DNA of 64,000 nt, taken from assembly GCA_027451365.1 (NCBI GenBank), contig DAIDJN010000063.1:1-64000 (forward strand), in the 5' to 3' direction. The position numbers and the translations under genes were made by a program. The notes under the pieces were generated by a model that had not been told where the DNA came from, searched no databases, and saw nothing but the letters and a program-made list of their open reading frames with translations. Position 1 is the first letter of the stretch. Each line of letters begins with the position of its first letter. The DNA is from Phycisphaerales bacterium (GTDB lineage Bacteria; Planctomycetota; Phycisphaerae; WQYP01). This document shows, in pieces, positions 3,263 through 21,425 of the stretch.

Positions 3263-4024
3263 ATGCGTCTGGCTTGCGGCATTTTTCTGCTCACCTTGCT
3301 GACAATCTGGTGCGGAGGATGTGTCGACCTTACCGGCCTTCCGGAAGACCCCGTGGCCGGCACCATTTCCGCCAGCCACGCGGCAAAATACAAATACCCC
3401 GGTCACGTTTACGCCATGCGCGGCTTTCTGGGAATCTTCAGTACCGGCATGGACACGTTGGCGTTTACCCTTTCCAAGGAACATCTGGTGGAAGCCGCGC
3501 CCGTGGCCGATGAGGCGCGCGGCCCGTTGAAAGACTTCCTGTTGAAAGCCGAAGCCGAACACCGCCTCAATGACGGCCCGCTGATTCTTGTCGGTCATTC
3601 CTGGGGTGCCGACGATCAGGTTCGCATTGCCCGGTCGCTGGGCCACCATGGCATCAAGGTGGACCTTCTTCTGCTGATTGACCCGGTCACTCCGCCACAC
3701 ATTCCCGTCAACGTTGTACGTTGTATTGATATCTACAAAAGTCACCCATTGACCGACTGGTTCCCGGCATGGCGCGGCGTTCCAGTGACTGCGGCAAACC
3801 CGGCTTTGACAAAACTGACCAACATTAACCTGCGAACCACACCCGAAAACTTTGATACACAGGACATCAACCATGTGTACATAACCGCCAGCCGTGGCGT
3901 GCAGCGCATGATGCGCCACGCCATTTACCGCGCCTGCAAACGCTGGGAAGCCGAGCATCCAACCGGACCCTGGACGGCCCCAAAACAACCAGCCGAGATA
4001 CCTATTCCCCCCAAATCCGATTGA
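3263..4024 (+). CDS. Putative exported/lipoprotein with alpha/beta-hydrolase-like GHSWG motif
   Basis: Hydrophobic N-terminus ending WCGGC, LILVGHSWGADD nucleophile-elbow-like motif, LLIDP and late His; start uncertain (ORF open from 3125). Confidence 0.55.
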   Translation: MRLACGIFLLTLLTIWCGGCVDLTGLPEDPVAGTISASHAAKYKYPGHVYAMRGFLGIFSTGMDTLAFTLSKEHLVEAAPVADEARGPLKDFLLKAEAEHRLNDGPLILVGHSWGADDQVRIARSLGHHGIKVDLLLLIDPVTPPHIPVNVVRCIDIYKSHPLTDWFPAWRGVPVTAANPALTKLTNINLRTTPENFDTQDINHVYITASRGVQRMMRHAIYRACKRWEAEHPTGPWTAPKQPAEIPIPPKSD

Positions 4025-5387
4025 AATCAAATCGCGATTGCAGCGGCTCGCCCGGACCTGATGATTTTCCCTCCGCTTCAACCGTATTTCCCGCGCCCGC
4101 TTCCGCGGTCGCATCCAGACCGGAAACCAGGTAACGCAGCGCGTCCAGCGCGTGGTCGCGCCCCAGAAATGCCCGCGGACCGGGATTTCCGGCGGACCGA
4201 ACGGCATAACGATATTCCGCCGCCTCTGAAAGAAGATTCACACACTGCGGATCCACTTTCAGGAGGCCGGTTAACAGCCGCGATTCCACCAGGGCAACGC
4301 CCGCTTCAATTCCGCGTCCCGGCGGCGGCCGACATAAAATATCCGCGCGATTCAACGCATGAATCAATTCCGGCCGAGCCGGGTCCGCAAAGGTCGCTTC
4401 CACATTCCAGCGGGCACACAGGCCGGTCAATCGCGACAGCAATGAGTCCAGCGGAAGCTTCTGGACGTACATTTCTTCTACAATGTGCAATACATTTTGC
4501 GCATCAGCCACCCCCACCAGCACCGCCAGCGGATCGGTCCAGCCCCAGTCAATTCCCATATACACTCTGCGGCCGGGGACCAGCGCCTGGGCGTTAAATT
4601 CCCGCACGGCTCCGGCCAATTCCGGGTAAACAATGCCTTCTGGCTCCGCCCAGATACCATGCAGCAGTTGGTCGCGCCTTGGTCCGCTAAGCCGTTCCAG
4701 GGTTTTTAAATATTCCACCCCGGCCGGCTTCCACTGGCCACTGCGCTGGTCAAACAGCAAAGGATTATCCTGATGCCGGCTCACCAGCCGCTGCATAAGC
4801 CCGGCATTTGCCCGCAGATTCAGCCAGTGTCCGGGGAAAGATGGATTGCATTCGGCAATCGCCTGATGAAAGGGCATCATGCCGTTTCGCAGTCGCGTGA
4901 TAAGTTTTTCCCAGTCATCAAGTTCCAGTTCCGTGGCTTCGCAGGCCAGCACCATGTCATATTCCGTGGACATCATGCGATCCGGATTATCCATCGACCC
5001 GAGCACCAGTTGCGAACCGTTGGACAGCGCATAATGCGTGCGATGCCCGCGTCCCGGTCCGCGCAGCATGGAATGGCCCGCGGGCACCACTTTGGTTTCC
5101 CACGTGACCAGGGCGGACTGGGTCAGACTCAGCCGCGTTTTGCGCACCAGCAGAGCGCGCATTCCGGGATAATTGCACATGCAGATAAACAGCTTCTCGA
5201 GTGCCGCGCGGGTTTTGCCCGTGCCCGCCGGCCCGGCCAGCAGCACTTCGCGCTGGTGCGAATAAAGCAGCTTTTCCGCGGCACCGACCGCCATAAACGG
5301 CCGCTGACCCGCGGATGGTTGATCGGATTGCGCATCGTTTCGGCCAGACCTGCCGGCACCGCCGGATAAGGGCGTTTTGGAATTCAC
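4002..5387 (-). CDS. Phage terminase large subunit (PBSX/Terminase_3-6-like)
   Basis: Walker A GPAGTGKT, LLVRKT motif, Walker B-like MVLACEATE, ECNP motif C, nuclease domain GIDWG..DP and DHALDALRY. Confidence 0.9.
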   Translation of the reverse strand: MNSKTPLSGGAGRSGRNDAQSDQPSAGQRPFMAVGAAEKLLYSHQREVLLAGPAGTGKTRAALEKLFICMCNYPGMRALLVRKTRLSLTQSALVTWETKVVPAGHSMLRGPGRGHRTHYALSNGSQLVLGSMDNPDRMMSTEYDMVLACEATELELDDWEKLITRLRNGMMPFHQAIAECNPSFPGHWLNLRANAGLMQRLVSRHQDNPLLFDQRSGQWKPAGVEYLKTLERLSGPRRDQLLHGIWAEPEGIVYPELAGAVREFNAQALVPGRRVYMGIDWGWTDPLAVLVGVADAQNVLHIVEEMYVQKLPLDSLLSRLTGLCARWNVEATFADPARPELIHALNRADILCRPPPGRGIEAGVALVESRLLTGLLKVDPQCVNLLSEAAEYRYAVRSAGNPGPRAFLGRDHALDALRYLVSGLDATAEAGAGNTVEAEGKSSGPGEPLQSRFDFNRIWGE

Positions 5388-5425
5388 ATCGTCACCTGGT
5401 TTATCGACTGATTCGGAATTCTCCG

Positions 5426-5968
5426 TTATATCTCATGCATCCGCACATTTAAATATGTCTTTTCTGGTTCGCGAACCCCGGGCGCGACGCCCTTGTCTTT
5501 TCCCTGTTTCAGATATTCCTTGCCCAACATGAAAATAAGCCGCAAATCCGGTTCCTTTACTGCGGCCATGGTTAATTGCTGCCGCCGCAGCGCCTGCTGC
5601 AAAAGGGCGCGTCCGAAGCGGAAATCCCGTCTGTTTGCGGGGCTTAATTTTTTTGCCGATGTTCGCAGCAGAGCCGCTATTTCGCCAAGTGTAGCCCCGG
5701 TCTGGGCCAACTGTTGAATCTGTTTTCGGCGGTAACGAATCGGCACAGACCGGGGCACCTCCATACCCGGAGCCACCGCTGACCCGGGCACTGCCGGCAC
5801 CTCTGCGGATGCCGCCGCCGCAGGCTGCCCCGCCGGAATCCCCAGAACCATGCGGGCATTCACAGTTGCCTGTGGAACGGCCTGAACAGTGGCGGGCTTC
5901 GGAGTGGCAACCCGGTATTGGGTATTTTTGCCAAGCGGCAATGGCAACTTGTTGACAGAATTGGACAT
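5426..5968 (-). CDS. Putative terminase small subunit-like HTH protein
   Basis: Directly upstream of TerL. HTH-like LAQTGATLGEIAALL followed by ALRRQQ...LIFMLGKEYLKQ, resembling the LRRxQ...LIWLGKQxLGQ pattern of phage proteins that precede TerL. ATG at 5968, 2 nt after the upstream stop. Confidence 0.6.
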   Translation of the reverse strand: MSNSVNKLPLPLGKNTQYRVATPKPATVQAVPQATVNARMVLGIPAGQPAAAASAEVPAVPGSAVAPGMEVPRSVPIRYRRKQIQQLAQTGATLGEIAALLRTSAKKLSPANRRDFRFGRALLQQALRRQQLTMAAVKEPDLRLIFMLGKEYLKQGKDKGVAPGVREPEKTYLNVRMHEI

Positions 5969-5970
5969 AT

Positions 5971-7176
5971 TTATCCCACCCATACAAATGAGCAAATCCT
6001 CCGCGATCCATAGGGGCGGGTACGGCGCCGGCCCGCGTGTGCCGGTCGGCAAATGCCGATGGCCGTAGTCCGCCAGCAACGGCTTGCGTGCAAAGACCGT
6101 ATCATTCCCGGATGGCTGGTAACCAGGCTCAAACGCCGAACCGCGGGGGCCTCAATTGCGGCCACAGTGTCACGAAAAGCCGAACCAATGCCGATTCCCT
6201 GAAAATCCGGTAAAACCACCACCCGGCTGAACCGCCAGTAACCCCTGAACCCGGCCACCGGTGCCACCGCTGCAAACGCCACCGGCTTGGGCGACGCGTT
6301 CGTGTCGTTCAGGCCGCTGCCGGCAGTCAGCAGGCCGGCATAACAGCGTATCGCCGCCGGCAAAGACTGACTTAAATAGTGATGACGCTTAAACAGGTTC
6401 CAAACGCCGGCATTGCACCGATGGACCGAAATTCTGATTCTCGGCCGACAAAGCAACCCCCGTGTGCGCCGCGGCTGGTGGACACGGGGAAGATCCGGCG
6501 CCACGGTTCCCGCCGTTGGTTGGCAAGCGGCCTGCGGCATATCAGCCGCGTGAAAGCGCGTCAGTTGGCCCGTTGCCATGTCCAGGCACCAGTCCGGGCA
6601 AAGCCAGTCCAGTACATCGTAATGACAGGACACAGCCACAAATCGCCGCTGTATGGATCCGGCCCGAATGGCTCCCGCCACCGCGGCTGCGCCCACGCGA
6701 GCCGCGGTGCGGTCCACCAGACTGGTGAATTCATCCATCACCACGGGGATATCCGGACCAGTGGCGGCCAGCAGCATTCGAGCCAGGTCCGCGCGGAATT
6801 GTTCTCCACCGCTAAGTGTGCCATAAGGCCGCAGCCAAGCCGGCGGAGAGGCAAACCCCACCGCCGTCAACATGCGGGTAATCTGATGGATGTCGCCATC
6901 CAGGCAGTCCACAATCGCCCGATCGGCCGGCCAAACCAGCGGCCAGACCGGCGGCCGCAACGAACCGGCAAACGCACTGCGCGCGATGTGGGTTTTACCG
7001 CTGCCTGAAGGGCCGACAATCAACCCAATTTTCCACGGTTCACTTTCCGCCGGAATTTCCGCGCAAAACTGCTGCACGCTGTTTTTAGTTATCGCAATAT
7101 CAAAAAGGCCGGCAACCTGCCGAACACGAAATGAATCCGCAATTGAACAACTGACAGTGGTGGTGATTTCCGGCAT
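5971..7176 (-). CDS. Soluble ABC-type ATPase fused to GNAT (Mom-like) acetyltransferase
   Basis: Walker A GPSGSGKT, signature LSGGE, Walker B VVMDEF, H-loop SCH; C-terminal WNLFKRHHYL and acetyl-CoA motif RVVVLPDFQGIGIG; no TM segments or permease partner. Confidence 0.85.
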   Translation of the reverse strand: MPEITTTVSCSIADSFRVRQVAGLFDIAITKNSVQQFCAEIPAESEPWKIGLIVGPSGSGKTHIARSAFAGSLRPPVWPLVWPADRAIVDCLDGDIHQITRMLTAVGFASPPAWLRPYGTLSGGEQFRADLARMLLAATGPDIPVVMDEFTSLVDRTAARVGAAAVAGAIRAGSIQRRFVAVSCHYDVLDWLCPDWCLDMATGQLTRFHAADMPQAACQPTAGTVAPDLPRVHQPRRTRGLLCRPRIRISVHRCNAGVWNLFKRHHYLSQSLPAAIRCYAGLLTAGSGLNDTNASPKPVAFAAVAPVAGFRGYWRFSRVVVLPDFQGIGIGSAFRDTVAAIEAPAVRRLSLVTSHPGMIRSLHASRCWRTTAIGICRPAHAGRRRTRPYGSRRICSFVWVG

Positions 7177-7266
7177 AAACCTTCCCGCGGTTTAAGGGAA
7201 TATGAGAAAGATATCCGGCGGACGCCTTCCGGAATCAGGCGGCGATAATAATCTGAATCGCGGACA

Positions 7267-7407
7267 TCACGCCGGCGGCCGCCCCTTCAAATAAAGTAAC
7301 CCCGGCGCTTGGTCAGAATATAATTTCAGGGTACGCAGCGACCTTATGCGGCAGAAGTCGTATGATTTGGGGCAGACCGCTCCAACATTTTGGGCATGAC
7401 CAAGCAT
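7267..7407 (-). CDS. Possible 46-aa small ORF within the phage-like module
   Basis: MLGHAQNVGAVCPKSYDFCRIRSLRTLKLYSDQAPGLLYLKGRPPA*; an AAGGA SD overlaps the ParB stop; fills the 240-bp gap; no recognisable motif. Confidence 0.25.
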   Translation of the reverse strand: MLGHAQNVGAVCPKSYDFCRIRSLRTLKLYSDQAPGLLYLKGRPPA

Positions 7408-7415
7408 CAGTTTCC

Positions 7416-7976
7416 TTACAGTGTCATCAACCGCACCTTGCGGCCCTGCCCCGCAAGCTGCTGGTACAATATTTTCTGATCCGCCTCGTCATGACATTCC
7501 ACGGCAAGTTCATACAAGTGCGGAATGTCGTGAATCTGCGGCAAATTTTCCGGCAGTTGCAACGGTGCCACCCCGGCGGCTTGTAACAACGCATTCAGTG
7601 ATTCATCAGAAAAACCGGTGGCAATTTTCAGCAGATCATCCAGCGATTCAAATTCGCTTTTAAGTGCCGCAAGGTCCCATTGGGCAAGTTCTGCGGTGCG
7701 GTTGTCCGCAATGGCGTAGGCAATTGCATCGGGTCCGGAAAGATCGGTTACGAGCACCTCTATGGACGACCAGCCCAATTCACGTGCCGCCTGATAGCTG
7801 CCGTTGCCGGCACGAATAATATTATTGCGGTCCACCACAATGGGCTTCTGCTGGCCGAAGCGGCGCAGGCTGGCCTTAATTGCCGCAATATTTTCCGGAC
7901 TATGCCGCCGCACATTGGCAGGATCCGGAGAAATGGAATCAAGCGGCACGGTTTTTATGAGCGGCGTGGTTTTCAT
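7416..7976 (-). CDS. ParB/Srx N-terminal domain protein (phage type) with small C-terminal domain
   Basis: PDPANVRRH..I..SLRRFGQQKPIVVD...IRAGNG..AA, AYAIADNRTAELAQWD; C-terminal YELAVECHDEADQ..LY..L...G.KVRLMTL; no methylase domain attached. Confidence 0.85.
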   Translation of the reverse strand: MKTTPLIKTVPLDSISPDPANVRRHSPENIAAIKASLRRFGQQKPIVVDRNNIIRAGNGSYQAARELGWSSIEVLVTDLSGPDAIAYAIADNRTAELAQWDLAALKSEFESLDDLLKIATGFSDESLNALLQAAGVAPLQLPENLPQIHDIPHLYELAVECHDEADQKILYQQLAGQGRKVRLMTL

Positions 7977-8029
7977 ATTTCAGTTATAGCAATCAAGGAA
8001 AGCGGATAATCAAAATCACCCATCGCCCC

Positions 8030-8400
8030 AACCTGGCGGGCGGGCATCTTGCCCGCCAAACGCCAGTGCGTAGCCCGGCCGCCCGGCGGCCCGTGCTTCA
8101 CGCCAAACACGATATCCGCATTTTTCAGAATGAGGTAATAAAATTATTGAACCATGACCCGCGCAAAATTGATGACGCCCTCCATTATTAAGCGATGCCC
8201 CCCATCTCCTCTCATTAAGTGAGGCAACGCCGAAGTCTCATTAAAGCCGCCGCGGGCGGCTGTCTTATTATGCGTAGCGCCGCCGCCCATCGTCCTCCGG
8301 GTTGCTCGTTGGTCGATGATCGTTCGCCGTTGTTAACCCCCCCGCCTCCCAACCGCCAATGAGAACCTGGCGGGCGGCCGTCCCGCCCGTGCTTCATGCC
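8030..8400. repeat. Cluster of GC-rich REP-like palindromic elements
   Basis: AACCTGGCGGGCGG at 8030 and 8364; GCCCGTGCTTCA(C/T)GCC ending at 8104 and 8400; GGCGGGCATCTTGCCCGCC also occurs inverted at 21666. Confidence 0.6.
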
Positions 8401-8706
8401 GCAGCCGGGACTATCCAAAGGACCGGCAATGGAGCATAATTTGTGGGGAAGGAAATGGCACGGCGATGAAGGTACTCAGTCCGTTGAGTCATAAGCGTAA
8501 AATTGCTTTCCATGTTTTCCTATCGAAAGGTCGGACTGACGCAATCGCTATAATTTACACAAGCATCGAAAGAACAGCCGCCTCACCTTGACTGGTGGTT
8601 TTGGAAGGAACCGGCCGATATTATCCTAGAGATGAAATCGTTATGATTGTTTTGTCAGGGTTATAGGCTTCATCAAGGAGCCGGTCAGTCGGAAAAAGGG
8701 TTGGTC

Positions 8707-9885
8707 GTGGCACGGATTCGCGCTTTAATCACGCCATCGGTTCTCAAATGGGCCCGCGTCCAAGCCGGCTATGGTATTGAAGAGGCGTCAGAGAAGCTCG
8801 GGATTCCAGTGGATACCCTGGAAAAATGGGAGGGTGGAAATCAACGGCCTACCCTCACGCAAGCGCGCGACGCGGCGCGGATTTATCGCAGGCCGTTGGC
8901 AGCATTTTACTTGCCCAAACCGCCCGTCGATTTTCAAACGCCCCGTGATTTTCGCAGACTGCCAACTCGCTCTCCCCGGCGATTCAGTCCGGAAATGCTT
9001 TTTCTCGTTCGTACACTCGTCTATTGCCAGGAATGGTTAGGGGAATACCGACGGGATGCGGGCTATTCCGAATTTTCTGCGGCACAAGCCACCCAGCCCG
9101 CCAACGCTGCGGCGGTAGCCAATGCCATACGTGCAACACTCGGTATCGGGGTTGATTGGTACCAGAACTGCAAGCATCAGGAGGATGCCTTGCGTTCTTG
9201 GACCACGGCCGCCGAAGCAATAGGCATTTGCGTCCGTCGTGATCCCGGCATCGAGCTCACGGAGGTCCGCGGATTGGCTCTATGCGATAAATGGGCCCCC
9301 CTGATCTGGATTAACAGCAAGGATACCGCGGTAGCTCAGTTGTTCACGCTTGCTCATGAACTGGCACACATCTGGCGGGGTGAATCAGGCGTCTCCAACC
9401 TTTCGATGGCGGGAACATCCACGACCGGAGCAGCGGAAATAGAGGTCTTTTGCAATCAGGTCGCGGCCAACCTGCTGGTGGCTCCAGAAGTGTTTGAACG
9501 CGAGTGGCAATCGCTGGGCGATAGCGCTTTTCCAGTCGCGGCTGTCACCAAGGTCGCTGGACGATTAAAGATAAGCGAAGAGGTCGTAGCACGATTGCTT
9601 TTGAGTCGCCATTTGATCACCAATTCCACATATCAGCACATGCGTAACGATTTTACGGAGCGATGGCGGCAGCGCCCGCGCAAAAAACACCCCGGCGGCC
9701 CAGATTACGCAACCTTGAAGATATCGCAGAATGGCCAGCAGTTTACCCGCGAAGTCCTCAGCGCATATTTTGAGGACTATACAACCGCGACCGAAGCCTC
9801 CGACCTGCTTGGTCTGAAAGTTAACCATTTTCCCAAGGTCGCTTCCAAGCTCCAACTTCTTCCGGGCAAGGGGATTGACCCTTGA
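8707..9885 (+). CDS. XRE-HTH / ImmA-IrrE family metallopeptidase (COG2856-like)
   Basis: N-terminal XRE HTH (LKWARVQAG...TLEKWEGG..PT), FTLAHELAH (HExxH), EVFCNQVAANLL; GTG start at 8707. Confidence 0.9.
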   Translation: MARIRALITPSVLKWARVQAGYGIEEASEKLGIPVDTLEKWEGGNQRPTLTQARDAARIYRRPLAAFYLPKPPVDFQTPRDFRRLPTRSPRRFSPEMLFLVRTLVYCQEWLGEYRRDAGYSEFSAAQATQPANAAAVANAIRATLGIGVDWYQNCKHQEDALRSWTTAAEAIGICVRRDPGIELTEVRGLALCDKWAPLIWINSKDTAVAQLFTLAHELAHIWRGESGVSNLSMAGTSTTGAAEIEVFCNQVAANLLVAPEVFEREWQSLGDSAFPVAAVTKVAGRLKISEEVVARLLLSRHLITNSTYQHMRNDFTERWRQRPRKKHPGGPDYATLKISQNGQQFTREVLSAYFEDYTTATEASDLLGLKVNHFPKVASKLQLLPGKGIDP

Positions 9886-10409
9886 CCGACCGATACTGCC
9901 TTGATACCAACGCACTTATTCGGCCGTGGAACGGATATTACGCGCCGGCAATTTGTCCGACCTATTGGGAATTATTAGCGCAGCTGGCCAAAAAGGGAAT
10001 CGTTTTTTGCCCGGACGAAGTTCGCCGGGAGTTGGAGAAAAAAGATGATGGCCTTTTTGCTTGGGCGAGGAAAACCCCGGATATGTTTGCCCCAGCAACG
10101 GAAATTGTGCAGGAACACCTCGGTCAGATTTTAGCCAGATTTCCCCGCCTGCTTGACACAAGAAAGGGGCGCAACGCCGCTGACCCATGGGTAATAGCGA
10201 TTGCTATGGCACAGAAGGCCACCGTTGTAACTCAGGAAAAGATGCGCAACCGTGGTACGGACCGGTATGGAATTCCAGACGTTTGCGCAGGCTTTAATAT
10301 TAATTGTATTGACGACCACCGCTTCGTTCATGACATTGGTTTTCGTTTTACGGCAACACTCGACCCGCCGTTGAATGGGCGCCCTGATTTGGGATTCCAG
10401 TTAAGCTAA
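9882..10409 (+). CDS. DUF4411 family PIN-like nuclease
   Basis: YCLDTNALI, EV..EL, ADPWVIA.A, VVTQE, IPDVC; TTGA overlap with the ImmA/IrrE stop. Confidence 0.85.
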   Translation: MTDRYCLDTNALIRPWNGYYAPAICPTYWELLAQLAKKGIVFCPDEVRRELEKKDDGLFAWARKTPDMFAPATEIVQEHLGQILARFPRLLDTRKGRNAADPWVIAIAMAQKATVVTQEKMRNRGTDRYGIPDVCAGFNINCIDDHRFVHDIGFRFTATLDPPLNGRPDLGFQLS

Positions 10410-10540
10410 GTTCACATATTGCATGAGGACGATATACAAACGCACGACAATCAAGAATAATTTCAGGGAATTGAGGTTAACGCCTGTTTACTTCTGGGAT
10501 TGTGACCTATGGCATTGAATTTTCGGCGGCCGGGTTTCGG

Positions 10541-11868: not shown

Positions 11869-12156
11869 TTACCTTAATGGAATCTAAAGGTCGGCTCTGC
11901 GAGTTGTGCATACGCCGATGCAGAATAACCTGCTTTAAAGAAAGCTCGCAACCGGAGGCAAACGGATTAGCCTTGAAAAAGGCAAGCTGCCGTTCGCTTG
12001 CCGCGTGGTTGCGGTAAACCAGACCACGGGGAAGATCAGAGCATCATTTTATTTTCCAAGGCGTCGATTGAATTCAAAATCTTCGGGAGATCGCCCGGTG
12101 GTGTGTTACCGCAGGGGAATTGCGCCTTCCGGATTCTATTTTTTAAGGAGTGTCCA

Positions 12157-12981
12157 GTGAGAACTTCCGGCAAACTGGCTGTTTCTGCGGTGGCCCTGTG
12201 TATCGCAGCTTCGGCGGCCGCACTGCACGCAGCCACCATTAATGCGATCAGCTACAATTTCGGCGATGGCCAGTCCTACCACCCGGTCACACTGTCGGAT
12301 GTAATTGGAGTCGTGCCGGTCGCAAATTGGAATGACGCCTATCGAAATAATATTACAATTCCGAACAATGATGCGGGCGGCAACACCACTCTGGATGATT
12401 ATAATTATGACAGCAACGGGAATATAATCGGCCAGTATAACAGCGGCACGAATACGACCACTGGCGTTACAGCCACCTATAGCGCCAATGACAATTGGAG
12501 CGTGACAAAATCCGGCACCAGCGCCGACACGGCGTATGATACAACCCCCGATGCCATCATGAACAACTCGTATCTTGACACAAATGTCACCCTTACCGTC
12601 AAGAATATCCCCTACGCAATTTATGATGTGTATGCGTATGTCGGCGCAGACGTGAACGGCAGGCTTGGTCAGGCCTACATTCAAAGTAATACCGGCACCT
12701 CACAATATTTCAAGACCGATGATCTGACCGGGACGACCTTTACCGGCTATGTCGACAACTCGGCTTCAACGGCGGCCGGTGCCGGGACTGCCACCTATAT
12801 CGAATGGACCAACGTGACCGGTTCCACTTTGCAGTACAACCAGATTACCCCGAGTGGCGGTGGTAATAACGGGCTTCACGGCCTGGAAATTGTGCAAGTG
12901 GTTCCGGAACCGGCGACATTGGGTTTGCTGGGGGCTGGCGCCATGGGCCTGCTGCTGGCCCGGCGACGCAAAATCGCATGA
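12157..12981 (+). CDS. PEP-CTERM sorting domain-containing secreted protein
   Basis: AAGGAG SD then GTG 12157; signal peptide; Asn/Thr/Gly/Tyr-rich body; C-terminal VPEPATLGLLGAGAMGLLLARRRKIA. Confidence 0.9.
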   Translation: MRTSGKLAVSAVALCIAASAAALHAATINAISYNFGDGQSYHPVTLSDVIGVVPVANWNDAYRNNITIPNNDAGGNTTLDDYNYDSNGNIIGQYNSGTNTTTGVTATYSANDNWSVTKSGTSADTAYDTTPDAIMNNSYLDTNVTLTVKNIPYAIYDVYAYVGADVNGRLGQAYIQSNTGTSQYFKTDDLTGTTFTGYVDNSASTAAGAGTATYIEWTNVTGSTLQYNQITPSGGGNNGLHGLEIVQVVPEPATLGLLGAGAMGLLLARRRKIA

Positions 12982-16569: not shown

Positions 16570-16695
16570 CGGCATTGTGTGCCGAGTGAGGGAAGAGTTT
16601 TTTTCATAAGTTCTTAGAAAAGGAGAACAGAGTATGCGTACTGGATTAACCTTCAAGATTGGCATTACTGCGATGGCGCTGGCCGCCACGGCGGC
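16570..16695 (+). repeat. 126-bp direct repeat copy 1 (leader plus signal peptide cassette)
   Basis: Matches 20522-20647 with 5 mismatches by manual alignment; offset 3952 bp. Confidence 0.95.
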
Positions 16696-17524
16696 TCTTG
16701 GGCCAGGCCTCAATGCCTCTGCGGCAGCCCTGACAAGCCTTACCATCGGACCAGCCGCACCAACGCCAACTGCCGGCGATGTTTATAATTTCGTCGGCTC
16801 CGGCAATGATTTTGGTAACGTAAACACGACTTCCGCGGGCGGATATGGAACCAATTCGAGCAGCACGGGCGGGCTTGGCGGTAACGACGTATACCAATAC
16901 GTGTCGGGAAATCGACCGGACCAAGGCCAGACATTTACGACAGGCGCCAACCCAACGGGTTATACCCTTACATCAATTTGGCTTGAGCATGTAGGTTACA
17001 ATAGTTCTAATGTCTCAGGGCCGGATAATAATGGCACCTATTGGCAGCTGGGCTCCGGCGCGAAATTAACGGTGCGCGTAACAAATCCCAGTTTGGCCGG
17101 CAAATCCGGTTTCGCTTTGGCTACCGAAACCTATACCGCAGCAGGTAACGAAGCCTCGCCGCACACTTGGGCGGCCGGCCAGAACAACTTTACGGGAGAC
17201 GGTTACTGGATGGATTTCGTGTTGAGCAGCCCAGTCACATTGCAGGCCAACACGCAATATGGATTCGATGTTTCATCGCAAAGCAGCAACGGCTATTTTG
17301 AGATTCTCGGGACCGATGGCTCGGCAACTGGGTATAATTTTACCGGCGGGTCAGCCTACAACGGCAGCACAAACGGGGCGTCGGATAATGCTCTTAATAC
17401 GTTGAGCGGAAGCCGGGTGTTTCTTGCATCCATGACGGCCAATCCGGTTCCCGAACCGGCGACCTTTGGTCTGCTGGCTTTCGGGGCGATCGGATTATTG
17501 CTTCTGAAGCGCAAGACGGCCTGA
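16634..17524 (+). CDS. PEP-CTERM sorting domain-containing secreted protein
   Basis: AGGAG SD; signal MRTGLTFKIGITAMALAATAALG; C-terminal VPEPATFGLLAFGAIGLLLLKRKTA. Confidence 0.9.
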   Translation: MRTGLTFKIGITAMALAATAALGPGLNASAAALTSLTIGPAAPTPTAGDVYNFVGSGNDFGNVNTTSAGGYGTNSSSTGGLGGNDVYQYVSGNRPDQGQTFTTGANPTGYTLTSIWLEHVGYNSSNVSGPDNNGTYWQLGSGAKLTVRVTNPSLAGKSGFALATETYTAAGNEASPHTWAAGQNNFTGDGYWMDFVLSSPVTLQANTQYGFDVSSQSSNGYFEILGTDGSATGYNFTGGSAYNGSTNGASDNALNTLSGSRVFLASMTANPVPEPATFGLLAFGAIGLLLLKRKTA

Positions 17525-20521: not shown

Positions 20522-20647
20522 CGGCATTGTGTGCCGAGCGAGGGAAGAGTTTTTTTCATAAGTTCTTGGAATTGGAGAACAGAGTATGCGTACTGGATTA
20601 ACCTTCAAGATTGGCATTACTGCGATGGCGCTGGCTGCCACGGCGGC
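20522..20647 (+). repeat. 126-bp direct repeat copy 2 (leader plus signal peptide cassette)
   Basis: Matches 16570-16695. Confidence 0.95.
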
Positions 20648-21425
20648 CTTGGGCGGCATGGCCGTACCGGCGGCGCAGGCTACGCTAATCCATCAGTACA
20701 CTTTCAATGATGGCACGGCCAACGACAGCGTCGGCGGTGCCAACGGAACGCTGGTTGGCGGGGCTACCATAACCAACGGCCAGCTTGATCTGAACGGGAG
20801 CAATACCCAATACGTAAGCCTGCCCGCGGCGACCATCGACATCAGCTCTTACACTGCGGTATCATTTTCCATCTGGTTTACTGCGCCGACCACGCCGGCG
20901 GTCAATAGTCAACTTTTTGCGTTTGGCGGCGACTACAGCGGAAACGGTTACGGCTATATTATTGCCAACCCGAACAGCGGGGGAAGCTCCCCTGACTATA
21001 GAACCGCAATCAGTGCTGGTCCGACCGGAACGCCAGGATGGCAGTACGGCGAAACATCCATCAACGGTGGATTGACGAGTACGATTGTCGGCAATGGCCA
21101 GCATCAAATTGTGGTCACCGACAACAATAGCACGCTGAGCATTTACCTGGACGGAACGTTAAAAACAAGCGCCAGCATTCCGTCGAAGAACCTCCTTTCC
21201 GGTCTCTCCGACTCTCTGGCGTATATCGGAAAGTCAGTTTATTCAAGCGACCCTGGCTTCGCCGGATCAATTAACGAGTTTGATATTTACAATAACGCAC
21301 TGAGTGCCACGGATGTGGCGAATGCCTACGCGGCCGGTCCTGTCCCCACCCCCGAACCAGCGACCATTGGTCTGCTGGCAATCGGGGCAATCGGGCTACT
21401 GCTGCTTAAACGGAAGACGGCCTGA
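20586..21425 (+). CDS. PEP-CTERM protein with LamG-like jelly-roll domain
   Basis: LIHQYTFNDGTANDSVG...HQIVVT...IYLDG...YIGKS..FAGSINEFDIYNNALSA (LamG pattern); C-terminal TPEPATIGLLAIGAIGLLLLKRKTA. Confidence 0.9.
   Translation: MRTGLTFKIGITAMALAATAALGGMAVPAAQATLIHQYTFNDGTANDSVGGANGTLVGGATITNGQLDLNGSNTQYVSLPAATIDISSYTAVSFSIWFTAPTTPAVNSQLFAFGGDYSGNGYGYIIANPNSGGSSPDYRTAISAGPTGTPGWQYGETSINGGLTSTIVGNGQHQIVVTDNNSTLSIYLDGTLKTSASIPSKNLLSGLSDSLAYIGKSVYSSDPGFAGSINEFDIYNNALSATDVANAYAAGPVPTPEPATIGLLAIGAIGLLLLKRKTA

Follow-up and report, generated by a model that had tools for sequence, protein, structure and literature searches.

A packaging operon of Phycisphaerales bacteria that belongs to a dispersed, vertically inherited phage gene set of probably domesticated nature

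The 64,000-nucleotide stretch of contig DAIDJN010000063.1 from a Phycisphaerales bacterium, called the window throughout, carries four co-oriented genes for a ParB-like protein, an ABC-ATPase fused to a GNAT acyltransferase, a putative small terminase (TerS) and a large terminase (TerL). It is well supported that this block is the packaging module of a domesticated, vertically inherited phage gene set of the HK97 type. The domestication itself is very probable. With moderate confidence, and for a system known here from genes alone, we further read the set as encoding a particle similar to a gene transfer agent (GTA), which would package host DNA. The original prediction had proposed a domesticated GTA-like system with its structural genes elsewhere. 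It is supported by structural genes on other contigs, by the restriction of the set to one host clade, by purifying selection and by contigs that bridge the end of the block. Positions in the window are as follows:

4002..5387, minus strand: TerL large terminase, 461 aa, ATPase and nuclease motifs intact (PF04466; phrog_2, E 3.7e-28)
5426..5968, minus strand: TerS-like putative small terminase, 180 aa, with a predicted N-terminal helix-turn-helix (HTH) (family matches to phrog_309)
5971..7176, minus strand: ABC-ATPase/GNAT acyltransferase fusion, 401 aa (phrog_11143, E 2.7e-80)
7416..7976, minus strand: phage-type protein of 186 aa with a ParB N-terminal domain (PF02195; phrog_620, E 5.9e-38)
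7984..8009, minus strand: promoter-like motif TTATC-N15-CTATAA, 7 nt upstream of the ParB start codon, common to other modules, with a putative promoter function

The four open reading frames (ORFs) on the minus strand occupy 7416-7976, 5971-7176, 5426-6079 and 4002-5387, the third being the longest frame for TerS, whose likely start is the ATG at 5968. ORF positions, family matches and conserved residues confirm that all four are intact, with conserved catalytic motifs in TerL and ABC-GNAT. The ParB_N match (PF02195) lies above the Pfam cut-off. In TerL, the Walker A motif, the Walker B residue E150 and the nuclease residues D280, D335 and D415 are invariant or nearly so across 15 aligned copies, and the protein is the sole phrog_2 match within the whole genome. 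The solved structures nearest to its profile are the large terminases 5oe8, 2wbn, 4idh and 4dkw, several of which we take to come from headful packagers. The ABC-GNAT protein shows little or no variation among 47 aligned relatives at Walker A, D148/E149, H185 and the GNAT LPD-QG motif. Its model (pLDDT 86.5) comprises an ABC domain (residues 1-210) and a GNAT domain (246-401) with a low-confidence linker between them, and fold searches gave Z 13-15 to ABC and GNAT folds alike. No TerS match was obtained for the product of 5426..5968 itself; its putative identity as TerS is carried by its family, 10 of whose 18 aligned members matched the TerS family phrog_309 (best E 5e-6). The HTH-like region at its N-terminus is conserved in the alignment and in the model of the predicted fold, while fold searches returned weak matches only, single ones with Z 5.1 or less.

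As claimed at the outset, the 3' end of TerL shares 23 bp with a convergent hydrolase-like host ORF, which ends at 4024, and no portal gene follows. This junction was spanned by contigs from three of four runs, X2 (3924-4379), X3 (3331-4962) and X4 (3896-4467), with a break at this place in X1, which rules out a misassembly as the explanation of the absent portal. The four runs stem from one study that possibly includes the source sample; the window was found in mine drainage metagenomes. No RNA run was listed among those containing the window, which says nothing about expression in either direction. The host itself is known solely through assembled metagenomes. The block had also been described as an orphan. 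This holds locally, but not genome-wide, as capsid, portal, neck, tube and tail-end genes sit on other contigs of the source genome, where they had been predicted to lie. They were found by searching the proteins of relatives' loci against that genome, G000 (other G-numbers denote genomes of the family, C-numbers contigs and L-numbers fetched loci):

G000 C56:7180-8532: capsid (PF05065)
G000 C22: portal (PF04860)
G000 C70:73725-75903: adaptor, head closure, tail terminator and tube (tube by position)
G000 C54:13196-14818: two putative tail-end genes (by gene position)
G000 C81: c82, putative tail-end gene (by gene position)
G000 C22, 2.7 kb upstream of the portal: sigma-factor gene pair (sigma-70 domains)

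Capsid, portal, adaptor and tail terminator are supported by family matches, and the head closure match falls below the cut-off. The genes are arranged as module A (ParB-ABC/GNAT-TerS-TerL), module B (portal-protease), module C (capsid, small membrane gene, lipoprotein, another small membrane gene, a variable large gene and a glycosyltransferase), module D (adaptor-closure-terminator-tube-short ORF) and module E (c81-c79, with or without c82). They are spread over about seven chromosomal sites, on six contigs in G000, and no integrase was seen beside the modules of that genome. The set therefore combines the terminase, portal, HK97 capsid, neck and tail of a tailed phage, the tube and tail end being assigned by position, with a location at multiple loci that lack a linked integration or replication module. 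The features of an inducible prophage, namely a contiguous genome, an integrase, replication genes and a patchy distribution, were not found.

Topologies like those of holins and unimolecular spanins were seen among the proteins of the modules. In the capsid module, the lipoprotein combines a lipobox-like cysteine with a hydrophobic segment at its C-terminus, as unimolecular spanins do according to the accessible text of PMC6139136. The same module contains lineage-variable genes of 500-680 aa, and some 20 genomes as well as the prophage copies have a two-domain glycosyltransferase alongside the capsid gene (G000 C56, L050:11869-13422). The neighbours C85 and c45, one an AhpC/TSA protein and the other a membrane protein lacking a family match, were not counted among the module genes. 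G020 alone has a phage-type primase immediately upstream of ParB (L035:12423-14825), and a replication protein like gpA of phage P2 (PF05840) is encoded on G000 C18 (L223:1246-2664).

The distribution of the set was followed through 45 genomes from 17 genera of the family, of which 32 genomes from nine genera are carriers. Capsid was found in 29 of the 45 genomes, portal in 28, adaptor in 30, TerL in 27 and c81 in 29. All matches fall in the nine carrier genera except a partial TerL (36%) in G004. Each gene is thus present, nearly always as a single copy, in 26-30 of the 32 carriers and in 0-1 of the other 13 genomes. The three carrier genomes without a capsid match are 65-69% complete, and most surplus matches are either contig-end fragments or divergent copies of prophage-like type. 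Of the 16 genomes from carrier genera in a 41-genome set, 12 had a strong ParB match and 13 a strong ABC-GNAT match. The order of the four genes is retained in 12 fetched genomes from five genera. TerL is split from TerS in genus g2 and in G053, a portal directly after TerL occurs in prophage-like copies only, and the host genes flanking the modules vary from genus to genus. Beyond the family, c81 gave three weak matches in 400 further genomes of the phylum, and capsid patterns searched against 185,579 species genomes gave 29 loci, 28 of them labelled Planctomycetota or Phycisphaerae. The set is therefore not patchy among relatives; it follows one host clade.

Trees were built with fast IQ-TREE and FastTree. 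In a rooted RpoB tree of 42 rows, which leaves out G012, G047 and G060 (without RpoB) and four partial RpoB, the carriers form one clade (SH-aLRT 98). A particle tree from 14 concatenated genes (3,803 columns; at least four genes per genome; G004, the prophage copy of G059 and the phage-like c81/c79 of G012 omitted) has 12 of 17 splits in common with the RpoB tree over 20 taxa, compared with a mean of 0.27 and a maximum of 4 in 1,000 shuffles. The comparison of gene tree and species tree that had been suggested for the block thus speaks for vertical inheritance with the host, firmly for seven genera and with uncertainty for g12 and g15. Selection was estimated within genera by the Nei-Gojobori method, dropping pairs with pS of at least 0.70 or dS of at most 0.05. 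Over 15 genes the dN/dS medians were 0.04-0.23, with 0.136 for TerL (17 pairs, 0.07-0.22), 0.136 for ABC-GNAT (15 pairs), 0.16 for TerS (14 pairs), 0.11 for ParB (12 pairs), 0.06 for the capsid, 0.10 for the portal and 0.044 for c81. RpoB reached 0.022 and the sigma pair 0.26 and 0.19. The genes are under purifying selection, and relaxed selection, which had been named as evidence to the contrary, is not seen.

These data bear directly on the idea of a functionless, decaying prophage scattered by rearrangement. A broken portal in G000, a stop in the TerL of G019, tail genes that were lost or shrunk and the clustered relatives in prophages would suit such a history, but low dN/dS medians at a dS near 1, retention as single copies in nearly all carriers and the presence of the promoter-like motif before split-off genes in several cases do not. 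We consider decay the least probable of all explanations, and the preference of the original prediction for an intact system is borne out by purifying selection and single-copy retention.

The promoter-like motif was searched as TTATC-N14-16-CTA(T/C)A. It precedes 56 of 106 module-leading genes, none of 92 internal genes and 2 of 25 TerL genes, against a background of 0.0023 per 260-nt window. Among the leading genes it was found before the portal in 8 of 16 cases, ParB in 4 of 16, the capsid in 12 of 26, the adaptor in 14 of 21 and c81 in 18 of 27. Both TerL genes with a motif (G053 and G047) are those split from TerS; G046 and G002 show variants, and none was found before TerL in G018 or G012. 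Likewise, c82 carries the motif where it is split off (G000 and G001). The site at 7984..8009 ranks second in the genome with a matrix trained without G000. A candidate regulator is encoded by the two-gene operon on C22, which consists of a protein with sigma-70 regions r2 and r4 and an r2-like protein. The Sigma70_r2-like gene was found in 22 of the 32 carriers, with one weak match in the 13 other genomes and a weak one in the prophage copy of G047, and the full r2+r4 sigma adjoins it in 21 loci. We infer that this sigma factor reads the motif.

The top-scoring site of the genome precedes an excisionase-like HTH gene and a 724-aa helicase-like gene (C82:48470-50950, L221). The latter was rejected as a conserved run-off replication factor, being patchy (11 of 45 genomes). 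A satellite-like element at C58:88726-94148 (L055:4727-10149) may hijack the particle; it encodes a primase-helicase and an integrase, the latter at tRNA-Lys, as well as a TerS paralogue belonging to the same family. Together with the predicted HTH kept in TerS, the two elements would fit a helper that mainly packages resident satellites through a sequence-specific TerS. We regard this as very unlikely, since the C82-type helicase is patchy compared with particle genes that are near-universal in the clade, and parasites would hardly explain vertical retention at the level of the host.

The same genes occur in one cluster and in phage order in two prophage copies, G053:C66 (L074/L098) and G047:C147 (L073/L096). 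There, a tape-measure-like gene of 1005 aa and 893 aa, respectively, stands before c81 and c79, and the strict motif was not found in either copy. In the carriers, the ORF after the tube has 106-188 aa (277 in G012; none in g6), which by position suggests a short tail. The closest virus among the matches listed is viral contig L389, with 50% identity for TerL, 43% for the portal, 53% for the protease and 63% for the capsid. Unlike the dispersed set, all three clustered relatives are contiguous and carry the portal, of 743-826 aa, right after TerL. With 21 viral sequences added to the TerL tree, seven genera remain one clade (support 92), and the viral relatives, with 46-50% identity at most, fall outside it. 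The closest homologues of the block are not those of complete prophages. The nearest TerL proteins among the GenBank phage matches listed are actinophage terminases with 28-33% identity. As a side observation, G047:C147, G053:C66 and L389 look like an undescribed phage family with long portals and with glycosyltransferases between the capsid and neck genes.

The existence of such phages of the ancestral family, as clusters in G047 and G053 and as contig L389, would give a target to anti-phage interference, in which host-encoded terminase and structural proteins poison the assembly of related phages and form no particle of their own. The original prediction had allowed for such packaging interference. 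We do not favour it, as almost the entire gene set for a particle has been retained: head, neck, tail, lysis-like genes and a regulator are present with intact catalytic residues, while one dominant-negative gene would suffice. Its probability is accordingly very small, only just above that of decay.

For the domesticated GTA-like particle, the following course can be proposed. The sigma factor would read TTATC-N15-CTA(T/C)A and thereby switch on all modules together, and a prohead would be built from portal, protease and capsid. TerS and TerL would cut chromosomal DNA and fill heads by a headful mechanism; given the predicted HTH of TerS, the start sites would probably be biased. Adaptor, closure and terminator would then be joined to a short non-contractile tail, as judged from the 106-188-aa ORF found at the place where the related prophages have 893-1005 aa. 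Holin-like and unimolecular-spanin-like proteins would free the particles. Since the genes are dispersed, no single particle could hold the whole set.

In the weakest step of this course, ParB and ABC-GNAT would likely acylate the packaged DNA or a packaging protein. ABC-GNAT matched 61 phage records, and its relatives are full-length in 56 of them. Gordonia phage Axumite has the order ParB, ABC-like, methyltransferase and terminase, and in Gordonia phage Jace ParB adjoins the ABC protein; in two other inspected phages, ABC-GNAT sits among tail genes. In fold searches, the GNAT domain matched Mu Mom with Z 12.8, level with many other GNATs. For ParB-terminase (ParB-Tls) loci, modification of phage DNA during packaging has been predicted (PMC4738411, accessible text). 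The block resembles these loci in uniting ParB, a modifying enzyme and the terminase in one operon, and differs from those of phages in being chromosomal, single-copy, vertically inherited and apart from the portal. By context, DNA acylation would be the likeliest role of ABC-GNAT, with protein acylation as a further possibility.

A domesticated particle might also have another job, such as killing of competitors, a decoy function or the release of DNA into biofilm. With its contractile tail and a sigma-like factor of its own, PBSX of Bacillus subtilis is a contiguous defective phage that its host has kept and that fills its particles with host DNA. Such a job would fit the same conservation and selection data, and the variable 500-680-aa genes of the capsid module could be adhesins. 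However, the present set is fragmented, and no sheath or sheath-sized gene was seen beside the tube in the fetched loci (no genome-wide sheath search was made). The tail is predicted to be short and non-contractile, and the packaging motor is under purifying selection, which argues that the DNA cargo matters. This alternative is rather unlikely.

A number of findings weigh against the GTA-like reading. Foremost, known GTAs have a TerS without detectable DNA-binding domain (PMC11841831, accessible text), while the present one has a predicted HTH. This feature would predict biased packaging and is the strongest argument against a GTA of the classical kind. A search of the neighbourhoods of the modules revealed no endolysin, and no protease was found in G000. 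Tube, tape-measure and tail-end assignments are positional and lack a family match; between the short ORF after the tube and the long proteins of tape-measure type, no homology was detected (hhalign probability 0.05; hmmsearch), so that the tape-measure assignment, too, is positional. The G000 portal ends after about 295 codons at a repeated element at the contig end (L051:1-140). This repeat also lies at the ends of C4, C5, C66, C41 and C53, and contigs of the same species in runs X1-X3 carry the portal beyond the break, which is thus particular to the G000 strain or assembly. The TerL of G019 has an internal stop (L040:9551-10528); a second TerS-TerL fragment was noted on another contig of that genome (L043). 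Genome-wide enrichment of the motif was not shown (15 versus a permuted mean of 6.4 and maximum of 30), and the motif was derived from the very regions scored, in kin that are not independent. Similarly, dS is near 1 and pairs are non-independent in the dN/dS comparison. The RpoB tree and the particle tree disagree in their deep order, and they conflict once at a support of at least 90 inside g3. In the TerL tree, G015 joins the prophage copies and L389 (92), and the placement of G012 is unsettled. Strict motif, sigma-like gene, ParB and ABC-GNAT were not found in G015 in these searches, so it may represent a separate or earlier stage. Its gene set is nearly contiguous (L044, L070, L165) but contains insertions, some of them PEP-CTERM-like, and its tape-measure position is occupied by an ORF of 188 aa.

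Elsewhere in the window, the palindromes and the toxin-antitoxin-like pair reported upstream of the block are present. The pair (8647-10409) encodes an HTH-IrrE/M78 protein and a DUF4411 PIN protein. It was rejected as part of the module, since the 2 kb around it (8445-10474) are skipped in three runs, with a joint from 8444 to about 10475, and it is thus a strain-variable insert. The GC-rich palindromic repeats at about 8030-8400 were rejected likewise, as they recur on contigs C59, C37, C65 and C73. The claim that the rest of the 64 kb holds no structural genes agrees with ORF lists inspected by eye, in which only host genes were seen, those ORFs not being HMM-scanned. Among them are genes for secreted proteins at 11998-12981 (with a PEP-CTERM-like tail), 16634-17521 and 20586-21422, near sugar-utilisation genes.

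Compared with known systems, the set presumably has its short tail in common with RcGTA of the Rhodogtaviriformidae. Further likenesses, as far as the accessible text of PMC11841831 and PMC9662315 describes RcGTA, are an HK97-type head, terminase and tail genes, vertical inheritance in a host clade and several loci. The set belongs to another phylum, however, and lacks both a core cluster and the contiguous head-tail cluster of the Rhodogtaviriformidae, terminase, portal and capsid lying apart; RcGTA was compared by description. The predicted HTH in TerS and the sigma-factor pair as candidate regulator are further differences. BaGTA of Bartonella and VSH-1/BhGTA of Brachyspira are alike in being independent domestications in one host lineage each (PMC9953437, accessible text), but no conserved run-off replication gene was found here; this comparison, too, is by description. 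The accessible text of PMC9953437 and PMC9662315 names ICTV families of the Rhodo-, Barto- and Brachy- types and makes no mention of Planctomycet. No planctomycete GTA was found in the literature within titles and abstract openings, with subscription papers and supplements outside this scope. We do not place the set in any GTA family, because its TerS retains a predicted DNA-binding domain and because the system has been read from its genes only. A bolder picture is an independent GTA lineage of the Planctomycetota, caught between intact prophages and full fragmentation, in which split genes gained promoter copies, a dedicated sigma factor arose, the tail shrank, cargo is acylated against restriction, and satellites tap promoter and terminase. 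This is possible, but we offer it tentatively and consider it doubtful as a whole.

GTAs are typically encoded at several loci, and their detection by sequence outside the Alphaproteobacteria is described as an open problem, since they resemble remnants of prophages and have their genes at many places (PMC11841831, accessible text). Here, except for the TerS feature, the genomic marks of a GTA come together in another phylum, with phage relatives that still display the ancestral gene order. This offers a testable route of domestication through operon fission, promoter gain, a dedicated regulator and tail reduction. The combination of an HTH-bearing TerS with an operon of the DNA-modification type would test ideas on the non-specific packaging of GTAs. 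If the particles do move DNA, they would provide a route of gene exchange for an uncultured bacterial clade.

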